A stretch of 52,588 bases of DNA, the filler included, from Circinaria calcarea (Eukaryota): NCBI GenBank assembly GCA_051942165.1. It is 2 parts of 2 records of this genome, joined end to end, with 100 filler letters (N's around TTAATTAATTAA, not from the genome) between each part and the next. Parts side by side here need not be neighbours in the genome. Positions count along the whole stretch, not along the records: positions 1 to 26,262 come from JAVECS010000082.1; 1 more part is not named here. One strand, written 5' to 3'. Made by a program: the position numbers and the translations under genes. The notes under the pieces are model-generated. The model was not told the DNA's origin. It did no database searches and saw only the letters and a list, made by a program, of their open reading frames with translations. Below are positions 17,875 through 22,534 of the stretch, piece after piece; the first letter of the stretch is position 1; every line of letters begins with the position of its first letter.

Positions 17875-20800
17875 TCAAGGCAGATAAGCCCCACCCGCAA
17901 CGACCAGGTTCATCCTCGTGAAGCGAACCTTGTACACGGGGCTCTTCTTGGTCGGGAACGCGCTGATCTGATCCGGAGTCACCACGACCTCCTTGCCCTT
18001 CTTCTTCTTCGCGCCCCCCGCACCCGAGACGCCAACCCCCTGCGCGGCGCTCTGCCCGCCTCCGTCAATCTTGACCCCGGCTCCGCCTTCGCCGATAATC
18101 CTACCCTGCTCGGGCGCCTCAGCTGGGAGAACGACGTCCCAGAGGCGGACGGTGCCGTCGGCGCCGCCGGACACGAGGACGGTGGATTCGACGCTGAAGC
18201 TGAGGGACCAGATACCGCCTTTGGCGTGGCCGCGCATGCGTTTGATGAGCCTCCCCGGCGCGAGATCCCACAAGATGATTGTCCCGGCATCGTCGGCGGA
18301 AGCAAGGATCTTTCCACTCGGGCTGCAGGCCATGCTCGTGATGTTGCTGGTATGACCGGTGAACATGCGGACCGGGTAGCCGTTGGTGACGGCCCACATT
18401 CTCACAATCTTGTCGCAGCTGCCTGTAAAGACGTAGGCGCTGTTGGGGTGGAAGGCGACGACATCGACGTCTTGGTCGTGGCCGACAAACATACGTAGAT
18501 ATCCGATCGATTCGGTACTCCACAGGCGAGCGGTCTTGTCAAGAGAACCGGTGAGGAAGTAATGCCCAAAAGGACCCCAGGTAATGTCCCAGACCATTCC
18601 GTCGTGGCCTTTGTAAACGACGAGGCACTGCCAATTGTCAAGGGACCAGAGGCGGATAGTTTTGTCCCCAGAGCATGAGAGGAGAGCTTGTGTGTTGGTA
18701 GGGATGATGCTGGAATAGCCAATCGGAACGGAATCATTCGGGGCAATTGATGGGGAGAATGAGACTCCGTACACAGGTGCCGAATGCCCAATGAGTCGGC
18801 GAGATGTTGGCGGCTGCGTACCTTTCTCATGAGGCATGTTTGATACAAGTGGCTTGCCGTCGAGGCTCCAGACCCGAATGTAGGAATCCGAGGTTCCGGC
18901 CGCTACTAGGAGGTTGTCTTGGGAAAAGTCGAGACAATTGATGCTAGAAATCAGATATAAGTAAAGCCGTTGTTCATCCTGGAGGCACGTTCACTTACCT
19001 ATCGTAGGTGTTGTGGAAGGTAAACATCACAACACTAACTCCGGGACCCACTCCTCCAGTTCGGCCTTCAATCTTAAAGCGATCACGGTTCTCCTTTACC
19101 TTCTGTACTTCCATGGCCACATCCCTGGCGCTTGAGGCCGGCAGAGGCAAGTCGAGGCGACTAGGTGCGTCCTCACTCTCTTCACGCTTGATATGTTGCT
19201 CGAAATGCTCAAGGAGCGAAAGTTGACCTTCGGAGGGTGGGTTCTTTGCATCTTCTTCCTCAAGTTCTCCTCGCACATCTCCGAGCAGCTCAGGCTCCAT
19301 TGGCAACGGTCCGAGTTTGAGTCTCGTCAACACGTTAGAGCCGGCATTTCCGACAACATTCGCGGATCCCGGGTTGTGACCTGGAATACCTTCGTCTTCA
19401 GCTGGGAAATCTTCTTTAGTCTTGGCACGACCAAGCATCTTCGCGAGGCTATGCTGATCGTCCGCAGCACGGTCAACAGTGACAATGCTGAGATAAGTCT
19501 GTAGAATAAAGACGATTATCGCGCCTCCTTCTTTGTGTTTTGCCTCCAAGAACTGAATCAGGTTGAAGAAGGCCACGGTCTGCATGGACAGTCGGTACTT
19601 TGAACCACGATAGATCTGAGCAATGGGATTCTCTAGCACATATGCCCGCCGATTGATCGGCCCCAACGCTCGCAGATCGTTTTCATGTTCATCTTCGAAC
19701 ATATGCTTGAAGGCGTTAAAGAATCTCTGGGCCTCAACTCCCTGGTCCGCGTAATTGATTTCGAGGAAAGAGTAGATAAACACTGGCCAGAGCAAGCGGC
19801 GCAGCTCGGACTGTTTCCCAAGTCAGATCTAGCTTGTATATTCGGTCTTACGACTGACCTTGTAGATATCCAGATTTTCCTCAATCCATTTCTCCAGTAG
19901 TCCTGTAGGATTCAATTAGTATCTAAGAATAAAGCTTTCGAGCGCCATGGAAGGCTTACTGAAAGCTCTGCCATACTTCAGTTCAGCGTCTTCTTCAGTC
20001 CTCGTAATGTTGAGGGGCCCTTCCACATCTTGGTTTGCTGACTCGGCACGTAGCGTGGCTTCTGTACGGCTATAGCCCTTCTTGGAAAGGTACTCAATAA
20101 CCTGATACAGGGTGTTAGCGGGAAAGAGACTCATTGTTGCTCTGATAACGCGTTAGGATGTTTGAAGGATGTAGAATGTGTGAAATAAGCCTGGCACAGA
20201 GGATAGTGTAAAGCTTTGAACTCTTTGAAAAGGACAAAGAATTACAAGAGGTGTTGACTGTTACTGAAGCAGTACTTCAAAGGGAGGAGATCAAACTGCT
20301 TAAAGGTTTCTTGACAGATTCTGTAGGTGTTGAGACAACAGGTCACGAGAGGGTGTAGGTTTCAATAAGGCCGATAATATATCCGGTAACCGAAAGGACA
20401 GTAACGGAATTCAGTTTGGTTTGTCATGAACTGCAAGCGAGTTCAGCTCGTTTACCTGTAGTAGTTGCTTGTCCTCTCTATTTTCCTCATGGTGGTCACT
20501 AGGACCATCCAAACCACTGCTGTCGAAAGGATGAGAAAAGGCTTGTACGGCCTCGGTATCGACGCGAGGTTTTGCTTGGCCTGCTAAGTTTTTCTATTTA
20601 ACCCAAAGTCAGCGACGAAGTGCTTATACTGATGGTTTCTGCAGGTAATTGGGCTGTACCTTAATGCGTTTGTAACGATTCTTAAGGGTGGTCGGGTACG
20701 CAAAGTTGTTGCCAGTGGCTTCCTTCCACATTTCTTCAATCTCCTTCCCAGGGCGCTTCTCTTCCACCATATCAATCAGTTTCTGGTCTATTTCATCAAC

Positions 20801-21493
20801 ATCTGCCCAAGATTTGGGCATGAGTTTGTGTTTTGTTGCAGCGATACCACCAGCAGAAGATGATGATGGCGCAACACGCGGTCCTCCGGCCTGCTCAGCT
20901 CCAAAGATTGCACCTTGCGCATTGCCAGGCACACTTGAATGGCGGTCTGCCATCTCGACTTGCTTGTTCTTTTGATATTGATTGGTCAAAAAGTGGCTAG
21001 AATCTTGACAGCTTGACGAGTTACGGTTTACCTTATGTTTTGTATTCGCGCCATTACCGAAATAATCTAAGCGACGCAGACTGAGTCCAGGGAGCTAGAG
21101 CATTATCCAAGTAGCCACCACGTCCACTACGTTTGCCTTTTTTCAGAAGAGCAGGTCTCGGGTAATCATCACAAGCAGCATTGCATTCTAGCTCTTATGT
21201 TTTTCCACGTTCAGATATGCATGAGTGAGTAGTGATGAGAAAATGGCCTTGACAAGATTACTAGAGTAATGCTCGGGAAAATCGATTGCTAAATTCTAAG
21301 AGATTTTGAGCCTTACTATCTGATTAAGATTCTGCTGCGAAAGAGCCCCATTTTGACTGCTACCCGCAGCATTTCCTCCCAACGCACCTTCGCCGGGCCT
21401 CGACTGTGGCATTGCCATTATTCCGTTGACTGTTCCATTACTGGTCGTCCGCGCTGCAGGATTCCCAGCATTACTAGGTGGTGGCCCAGACAT
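17875..21493 (-). CDS. TAF5: TFIID/SAGA subunit TAF5 (LisH, NTD2, WD40); exons 21493-21317, 20101-19960, 19902-19859, 19810-18999, 18943-17875
   Basis: Splicing gives the LisH motif QQNLNQI/VIEYLSKKGYSRTEATLRAES. NTD2 WIEENLDIYK/SELRRLLWPVFIYSFL, WD40 repeats (GHDQDVDVVAFHPNSAYVFTGSCDK) and C-terminal FPTKKSPVYKVRFTRMNL are present. Confidence 0.96.
20411..21094 (-). CDS. Myb/SANT-like helical-domain coding cassette nested in TAF5 intron 1 (separate gene or alternative exons)
   Basis: The frame is open from 21094 to 20627, with an ATG at 20953. It encodes KSWADVDEIDQKLIDMVEEKRPGKEIEEMWKEATGNNFAYPTTLKNRYKRIK. A putative intron 20594-20659 continues the frame to KNLAGQAK...EDKQLLQ and a stop at 20411. 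Confidence 0.6.
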
Positions 21494-21872
21494 GCTTAGA
21501 TCATCAATCCTCTATTCCAACCAACCGTATCTTATGAAATTCCTAGCCATGGGCTGTCTCCTTTATAGTTAATATATGTCAGAAAAAATAAGTCAAACCC
21601 CGGACGTAAGACGTCGAATGTCTATGGAACTTAAGCACGGATCAAGGAGACCCACAGATTGCCGCCCTACCCGTTGATAGCCGCTGGTAGCGATGTTTCG
21701 CTTATCTACTGTCGCGCTTGCATTCTCATGTAGAGTCGATTAAGTCAGAACACTTCCGTATCGTAATTGTCCAATCGCCCTCAGACAATTTTTAATTGCA
21801 TTTCAAAGCTTCCAGCTGTATCATCAACTGGTAAATCACGGCTGGGTTTGAAAGCTAAAAAGAATATCCGTG
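21494..21872. promoter_or_regulatory. Short bidirectional promoter shared by TAF5 and MED11
   Basis: Only 379 nt separate the two divergent start codons. Confidence 0.65.
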
Positions 21873-22534
21873 ATGACTCTTACAAATGTAAACCGTGAAT
21901 TTAGCAGCAGTGACCGTATTAGACAGCTGAACGACATTGATGGAGTAGTCTTTAGATCCTGACAAACTTCCTTGCTCAATGCTAATCTTAAGAACAGGAT
22001 GTGGTGAGGTTATTACACTCCGCTGGCCTCGCCGTGAATGCTCTTATTAATGCATCAACCGGAGAAGACAATGAACCAAGGGGGCCATCTTCAGTGGCAT
22101 CACATCGAGCTTCATTCACCGAGGCAACATCCGAGTATTTTTCATGCTTATCATCAATCGACGTCGGACTACGTCGACAGATCTATGCGCTTGAAGAGGC
22201 AAAGATAATCTCAACGGAGAAAGCAGTCAAGGAAAGTCAATCGAAACTAGGGGTGCCTATAGCATTGTCAGCTGCCAGTGGTATAGCAAGTAATGCGTCT
22301 AGCCTACAACCAAACAAAGAGAGAGTTGGGTTGGGAGGCGGAAGGTTAGGCTCGTTGGATGTTGGCTGGCTCAACAGCAGGAATGATAGAGTTGGTAAGG
22401 AAATGGAGGCAGAATTGTGGTCGAAGGCCGAAGACTTAGTCCGACATCTGGAGCATGAAAGAGAGAAGGAGGAGGTCAAGGGAACTGGTTTTGACACGGG
22501 ACGGGATCGACAGGTCTCAGATGATAGTGCTTGA
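21873..22534 (+). CDS. MED11: Mediator subunit Med11; exons 21873-21944, 21998-22534
   Basis: DRIRQLNDIDG/DVVRLLHSAGLAV...YFSCLSSIDVGLRRQIYALEEA and LGSLDVGWLNSRND match the fungal Med11 pattern. Confidence 0.88.

Follow-up and report, generated by a model that had tools for sequence, protein, structure and literature searches.

A putative DUF7626-type gene nested on the same strand within the long first intron of TAF5 in Circinaria calcarea

Protein-coding genes nested within introns have been described in Drosophila (PMC5174743, PMC3814207), where the nested gene, in the outline that titles and abstract openings give, is short and typically a young duplicate inside a long host intron (PMC5174743). 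The locus presented here, the TAF5 gene in a 52,588-nt stretch of Circinaria calcarea DNA (assembly GCA_051942165.1; the whole stretch analyzed is called the window below), resembles these cases in that a short, apparently young duplicate lies wholly within a long host intron. It differs from them in that the host genome is a compact fungal one, in which the other mapped TAF5 introns are ∼50 nt, and in that the nested gene lies on the same strand as its host. By that published outline, short duplicates inside long introns are a kind already known, and the locus is a curiosity and not a new kind of system. A full-text literature search, with relevance judged from titles and the beginnings of abstracts, returned no description of a nested gene at TAF5 or in Lecanoromycetes. 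Same-strand genes nested in spliceosomal introns are, to our knowledge, seldom found in compact fungal genomes, and they escape standard gene prediction. The explanation that we favor, with moderate confidence, is that an independent, small, two-exon gene of the DUF7626 type is nested on the same strand in TAF5 intron 1. The protein family with which to compare its product is that of the fungal DUF7626 proteins, such as P0129 (Xylographa opegraphella MCJ1282181.1) and P0125 (cf. Caloplaca KAL8713727.1, with five repeats); the full-text literature yielded no paper on DUF7626, and the function of the family is not described there. Like these proteins, the predicted window protein carries a ∼50-residue motif, SW..(3)..D..L..(14-15)..I...W...TG......TL.NRY.R.K, has a predicted phase-0 interruption straight after that motif, as several members appear to have, and comes from a lichen-type ascomycete. 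Unlike them, it is 158 aa long instead of 250-1,000 aa, has neither their basic N-terminal region nor their C-terminal part, carries G where they have one conserved W, and falls below the Pfam threshold when taken alone.

The argument depends on the borders of the host intron. TAF5 lies on the minus strand at 17.9-21.5 kb of the window. Its large exons match Pfam TFIID_NTD2 (E 5.5e-30) and WD40 (E 3.3e-54), and exon 2 gives weak LisH matches that pick up the profile only from positions 7-11, which places the start of this motif in exon 1; the LisH, TFIID NTD2, and WD40 propeller architecture of TAF5 is thereby found. Joining exon 1 to exon 2 (VIEYLSKKGYSRTEATLRAES) gives SQQNLNQI/VIEYLSKKGY, in which the slash marks the splice junction and the conserved start of LisH is restored. 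The same junction runs uninterrupted in TAF5 of Thelocarpon, Chaenotheca, Rasamsonia, Histoplasma, and Aspergillus fumigatus (...SQQNLN[QS]IVI[ED]YL). Because the spliced junction equals these full-length TAF5 N-termini, the distal exon belongs to TAF5 and intron 1 is real, with the length and borders that an initial annotation of this DNA had given it (Table 1). That annotation had also set the 1,215 nt of intron 1 against short introns elsewhere in the window; the next three TAF5 introns are indeed 57, 48, and 55 nt, a comparison that covers TAF5 only. The best TAF5 matches of the NTD2 exon in a longer-length search come from lichen-forming ascomycetes (Lasallia, Xylographa, and Alectoria; P0004-P0008) at 67-70% identity, and the best near-length match is P0141, at 82% identity.

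Within this intron, a frame on the TAF5 strand is open for 156 codons, stop included (21094-20624), with an ATG at 20953. The frame agrees with the initial annotation, as does the sequence of the intron-like segment that was said to extend it to 20411. The resulting product would comprise 158 aa (98 + 60), and its coding sequence (20953-20411) lies wholly inside TAF5 intron 1 (21316-20102), the borders of which are fixed because the exon 1/exon 2 junction is conserved. As a bare open reading frame (ORF), the 156-codon frame is only mildly unusual: dinucleotide shuffles of the intron reach this length in 96 of 5000 cases when either strand is counted and in 61 of 5000 on the sense strand. Codon usage is more telling. 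We scored codon usage per codon after training on the 12 longest ORFs of the window, and the in-frame scores of the two nested exons are like those of TAF5 exons 2 and 4 (Table 1); both lie above 0.166, the 95th percentile for 106 small window ORFs. No such preference for the frame is seen in the 47 codons that precede the ATG in frame, which fits a start at 20953. Neither nested exon holds a frameshift or a stop. A chance open frame in a non-coding intron would be in keeping with the ∼2% of intron shuffles that give 156 codons (96/5000) and with an empty near-length word-index search, but this reading is ruled out, leaving it next to no probability in our judgment, by 13 homologues at E<=1e-3 (best 1e-15), by the domain-level alignment to DUF7626, and by the frame-specific codon usage. 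Since homology and codon usage together make the frame more than a chance one, the nested frame is almost certainly a selected coding region.

Table 1. Features of the TAF5 locus and of the gene proposed within its intron 1, in window coordinates, with codon-usage scores per codon (a slash in a peptide marks the splice junction).
Feature	Position	Strand	Codon usage in frame	Codon usage in other frames	Remarks
TAF5 distal exon 1	21317..21493	-			59 codons, MSGPPPS...SQQNLNQI; ends in phase 0; donor GTAAGG follows
TAF5 intron 1	20102..21316	-			1,215 nt; GTAAGG ... branch site CTAAC at 20118 ... acceptor TATCAG
47 in-frame codons 5' of the nested ATG			0.097	0.083, -0.004	
Nested gene, coding exon 1	20660..20953	-	0.215	0.015, -0.061	98 codons from ATG 20953 (P0001); homology and codon usage
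DUF7626-like three-helix domain	20660..20821	-			approximately residues 45-98 of P0001; phmmer and AlphaFold
Nested gene, predicted intron	20594..20659	-			66 nt, phase 0, GTACAG ... GCTGAC ... TAG; sequence-based prediction
Nested gene, coding exon 2	20411..20593	-	0.229	0.063, -0.023	60 codons plus TGA; acidic low-complexity tail (P0002)
Proximal in-frame ATG (20134-20132) plus 10 codons into exon 2	20102..20134	-			MSLFPANTLYQ/VIEYL; candidate alternative TAF5 start
TAF5 exon 2	19960..20101	-	0.222	0.037, -0.120	LisH motif VIEYLSKKGYSRTEATLRAES...; weak LisH Pfam matches
TAF5 exon 4			0.227	-0.035, -0.106	

The homology that was anticipated for the peptide of the first nested exon is borne out. 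An exhaustive HMMER search of P0001 over 1.84 billion representatives returned the 13 homologues at the cut-off of E<=1e-3, and a word-index protein search at near lengths returned no match. Two of the homologues are ortholog-like: P0124 (111 aa, E 1e-15) is 50.6% identical over P0001 residues 14-98, and P0126 (76 aa) is 67.9% identical over 56 residues (P0001 1-56) and stops at SWADVDELD, where it is probably cut by the end of its contig. In this pair, not only the domain is conserved but also the sequence outside it, GAEQxGGP..AP..S.AG.IA..K.K..PKSWADVD. The other matches, proteins from lichen-type fungi, range in length from 120 to 1,018 aa and have in common the motif SW.....D..L...(K/R)....W..I...W...TG......TLPNRY.RIK. 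Of the 13 homologues, P0125 alone passes the gathering score of Pfam DUF7626 (PF24625; 27 bits), with 35.5 bits at residues 306-347, and sub-threshold Pfam matches to the same family occur in P0128, P0129, P0130, P0132, and P0135; P0132 and P0135 also bear an ASXH domain. With phmmer, P0001 51-97 aligns to P0125 304-349 (whole-library E 2.9e-10), and P0001 37-98 aligns to P0132 423-486, which overlies the DUF7626 match at 443-488. By transitive homology, then, the domain of the predicted protein is classed as DUF7626-like, and matches of the window to proteins of the family are confined to 20989-20618.

The family alignment also bears on the predicted intron. P0124, P0127, and P0134, all unspliced ORF calls, run out of the alignment with V or VR after NRYxR[IVL][KR]; this falls at the position of GTACAG in the window, as expected for read-through of a GT donor there. 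When the window is read as spliced, RIK/KNL matches the family pattern RIKxNL, and the predicted 66-nt intron would appear to sit at a site typical of the family. Downstream of it, the second nested exon (P0002) has no homologue among the proteins searched, and no further coding exon is apparent in any frame 3' of 20411.

The initial annotation had called the domain Myb/SANT-like. Three helices are indeed modelled, but they do not establish membership of that family, and DUF7626-like is the description that the homologues suggest. An AlphaFold2 model of P0001, built on an 11-sequence alignment, has a disordered N-terminus followed by helices at 49-64, 69-80, and 87-97, with a core pLDDT of ∼71-75 and a mean of 57.9. 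Against the Protein Data Bank (PDB), Foldseek found nothing at E<=0.001 for this model (best E 4.6). In a wide VIA-align search the top Z was 5.0, and unrelated small helical and helix-turn-helix (HTH) DNA-binding domains were tied in large numbers at Z 4-5. Sequence searches of solved structures with A1, P0129, and P0125 gave no meaningful match. No Myb or SANT profile of Pfam matched P0001 at E<=1; among its relatives, the matches to Myb_DNA-bind_6 and Myb_DNA-binding are all sub-threshold (E 0.013-0.071), including one to Myb_DNA-bind_6 in P0132 (residues 100-123, E 0.013), which lies in the expected register on a related repeat. ESM Atlas neighbors of P0129 are Ascomycota "Myb-like" clusters at a score of 0.89, which we treat as a lead only, and the same search with P0001 residues 40-98 was uninformative (best score 0.81). 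In Myb repeats the aromatic residues are spaced regularly, 18-20 residues apart. The aromatics W49, W76, and Y94 of P0001 are 27 and 18 residues apart. The window protein thus resembles Myb/SANT (PF00249, PF13921) in its predicted ∼50-residue three-helix unit with conserved aromatics, and it is unlike Myb/SANT in its 27/18 spacing and in lacking a profile match and a clear fold match. A Myb/SANT-like identity, as far as the model goes, is plausible but unproven.

We compared the locus with related TAF5 loci from a metagenome scan with a TAF5 alignment, which gave 80 loci (L001-L080). In 73 of 75 related loci the acceptor stands straight before V[IL][ED]YL, and L043 and L069 are uninterrupted; the position of intron 1 is, by this comparison, ancient. 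A homologous TAF5 exon 1 was found at 29 of the 80 loci. Across 16 related introns, intron 1 ranges from 435 to 1,903 nt; all of them lack a DUF7626 ORF, and neither blastn nor tblastx found similarity between the window intron and these 16. By locus, the lengths are 1,900-1,903 nt (L001-L007, L074), 1,770 nt (L010), 1,517-1,539 nt (L008, L014, L015, L016), 1,483 nt (L017-L019), 1,382 nt (L020), 1,052 nt (L022), 949 nt (L021), 856 and 820 nt (L023, L039), 702 and 690 nt (L009, L011-L013), 562 nt (L056), and 435-447 nt (L059, L073, L075). A long intron 1 in relatives that have no such cassette means that the long intron is older than the cassette and is not explained by it. The emphasis that the initial annotation placed on a cassette behind an oversized intron is therefore misplaced.

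The closest available relative provides a measure of constraint. P0141, the TAF5 protein at 82% identity, comes from the European Nucleotide Archive (ENA) and from one contig of 15,497 nt; P0124 likewise comes from the ENA and from one contig of 15,497 nt. On the equal size of these two single contigs, P0124 is most likely linked to TAF5 in that relative. The nested protein thus keeps 50.6% identity (P0124) where TAF5 keeps 82%. For comparison, L001 and L010 have 87% NTD2 identity, and their intron DNA can be aligned only in patches of 67-80%. That the nested protein retains 50.6% identity where intron DNA barely aligns argues for purifying selection on it.

Several observations weigh against an independent nested gene. 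Same-strand nesting requires TAF5 transcription to pass through the poly(A) site of the nested gene, which is awkward. When P0001, P0002, P0124, P0126, and P0127 were searched by tblastn against the 80 TAF5 loci (NTD2 identity up to 72%, reach up to 10 kb each side), there were 0 matches, and the nested-ORF arrangement is, to judge from this absence, young or narrowly distributed. When metagenomes were scanned with the nested-ORF alignment A2, 370 stretches fitted the pattern, none of which was confirmed. The linkage of P0124 to TAF5 is read only from the equal 15,497-nt contigs, a match in length that says nothing about placement in the intron. P0001 matches no Pfam family at E<=1 and so does not itself reach the DUF7626 gathering score. 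Position +5 of the predicted donor, GTACAG, is not the usual G, P0001 has G (G70) at the near-invariant middle tryptophan of the family, and the C-terminal part of the spliced Xylographa model P0129 has no counterpart downstream in the window; the missing C-terminal part, the lost W, and the weak donor would fit a truncated, possibly decaying copy.

This last point leads to a distinct explanation, namely, that a partial, DNA-level duplicate of a DUF7626 gene came to lie in a long, tolerant intron and is no longer functional, its open frame and codon bias being leftovers. Truncation relative to P0129, the lost tryptophan, the weak GTACAG donor, the lack of a direct Pfam match, and the absence from the 80 related TAF5 loci are what such a fragment would look like. 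Against it, the frame is still open and alignable in two other organisms (50% and 68% identity), the non-domain part included, even though at this distance most neutral intron DNA can no longer be aligned; moreover, codon usage gives a signal as strong as that of the TAF5 exons, and no frameshift or stop interrupts either exon. We consider a decaying fragment unlikely.

If the nested frame is an independent gene, its product would consist of a disordered N-terminal part, one DUF7626-type three-helix domain, and an acidic tail. In full DUF7626 members, as we read the family, a basic N-terminal region precedes the domain and more sequence follows it on the C-terminal side, and the nested gene would most likely have originated as a shortened, fast-evolving offshoot of this fungal family that settled in an intron already long in the clade. 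Transcription would begin at a start of its own inside the intron and terminate before TAF5 exon 2. Our guess, from the HTH-like fold and from relatives that join the domain to ASXH, is that the product may be a nuclear DNA- or chromatin-associated adaptor; a regulatory function is something that we can only infer.

Other ORFs occupy intron 1 in relatives of this locus. At L001:1603-2874 (+), and also in L002-L007 and L074, intron 1 holds P0139, a same-strand ORF that counts 423 aa from its ATG, and at L010:2739-3935 (+) it holds P0140, 398 aa from its ATG, which is homologous to P0139 (31% identity, E 1e-38). Neither P0139 nor P0140 matches a Pfam family, and neither has significant similarity to P0001 or to the DUF7626 family. 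Among L001-L007, a near-identical population, the ratio of nonsynonymous to synonymous substitution rates (dN/dS) of this ORF is ∼0.5-1.3 on 16-21 changes, and the ORF has diverged by ∼1.6% vs 0.4-0.7% for the flanking intron, which is the opposite of a constrained gene within a neutral intron. At L020:8899-9705 (+), the 3' end of intron 1 carries a stretch of 269 codons that stays open in the phase of exon 2, with the first M 238 codons upstream; this frame has no homologue in the other 79 loci or in the window.

The TAF5 locus might instead produce the DUF7626 protein as an alternative product, from an RNA that starts at the distal promoter and is either spliced into the nested frame or ends inside intron 1. 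In one variant, exon 1 would be joined to an in-frame acceptor just 5' of ATG 20953 (e.g., ...TTTTTGACC...CAAAAG/AAC). With either variant, the DUF7626 protein would derive from RNA that TAF5 drives, and the 59-residue N-terminus of TAF5 might be fused to it. Several features of the sequence would permit this: exon 1 ends in phase 0, the 47 codons open 5' of the ATG are bounded by a TAG that is itself usable as an acceptor, and several in-frame AG sites lie within that stretch. In addition, P0124 has I at the position of the window's start M, and the 2-3 residues before it (Q-V/A-E) are conserved in P0126. Those 47 upstream codons, however, lack frame-specific codon usage, and the unrelated intronic ORFs of L001 and L010 have their own conserved ATG 4 codons after a stop, with no AG before it in L010. 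We regard an alternative product as improbable and retain an independent nested gene as the preferred explanation.

A further question is where TAF5 itself begins, since an in-frame ATG lies near the 3' end of intron 1 (Table 1). Among 52 distinct related intron ends, 34 have an in-frame ATG within 15 codons 5' of exon 2 that is open to the splice site, as compared with 2/52 and 14/52 for the other two frames. In lichen-type intron ends, the window included, the count is 13 of 16 within 12 codons (7-11 observed), vs 1 and 6 in the other frames, and the lichen-type consensus reads ATGGAxGCTAAC, its M falling at codon -8 or -9. This pattern suggests a conserved proximal TAF5 start in intron 1 and hence a short isoform. 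The proximal ATG is precisely where the public TAF5 models of Alectoria, Xylographa, Ptychographa, Lecanora, and Sclerophora begin. In the deposited lichen TAF5 proteins P0004-P0007, P0016, and P0019, a short odd peptide precedes QVIEYL and there is no MSG...QQNLNxI exon 1. In such models, either exon 1 was overlooked owing to the long intron or the proximal start is a true one.

TAF5 may have two alternative first exons, with a proximal promoter and ATG 20134 giving the short isoform and the DUF7626 gene an ordinary small gene in between, a possibility that is compatible with an independent nested gene. The frame-biased ATG (34/52 vs 2/52 and 14/52), the lichen-type motif, and the public gene models speak for it. 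The GCTAAC part of the motif is also the branch site, so part of this conservation is related to splicing; gene predictors choose any available ATG; and exon 1 is strongly conserved, for example, with 53 of 60 residues identical between L001 and L010 by manual count. We hold two first exons to be possible, at somewhat less than an even chance. Combining the independent nested gene with these other intronic frames leads to a broader idea, to which we give little credence: lichen TAF5 intron 1 might be a long-lived tolerant slot between the distal and proximal starts that repeatedly gains or gives birth to lineage-specific same-strand ORFs (the DUF7626 mini-gene, the ∼400-codon orphan of L001/L010, and the 269-codon frame of L020 fused in phase to exon 2). 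Transcription in common, together with the alternative of splicing or terminating, would then couple their expression to that of an essential TFIID/SAGA subunit.

In the surroundings of the locus, a 180-codon open frame at 21992-22534 (+) diverges from TAF5 exon 1 at a distance of ∼500 nt, and a TATAAA-like box lies near 21565, on the TAF5 side of it; TAF5 and this frame may share a bidirectional promoter. A mobile element was considered and rejected: 19800-21800 contains no terminal repeats, and its repeats amount to a single direct pair and a single inverted pair of 12 nt each. An RNA gene was rejected as well, there being no tRNA genes and two Rfam matches far under their gathering scores.

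For annotation, the consequence is that the conserved exon 1 is left out of several public lichen TAF5 models, which begin at an ATG in intron 1. Should the nested gene be expressed, either TAF5 transcription has to pass its termination signals or the two products have to share transcripts, and either outcome would offer a tractable case of interference or coupling between a host and a nested gene at an essential transcription-factor locus. The otherwise uncharacterized DUF7626 family would gain a minimal, single-domain member, which may be handy for structural and binding studies.

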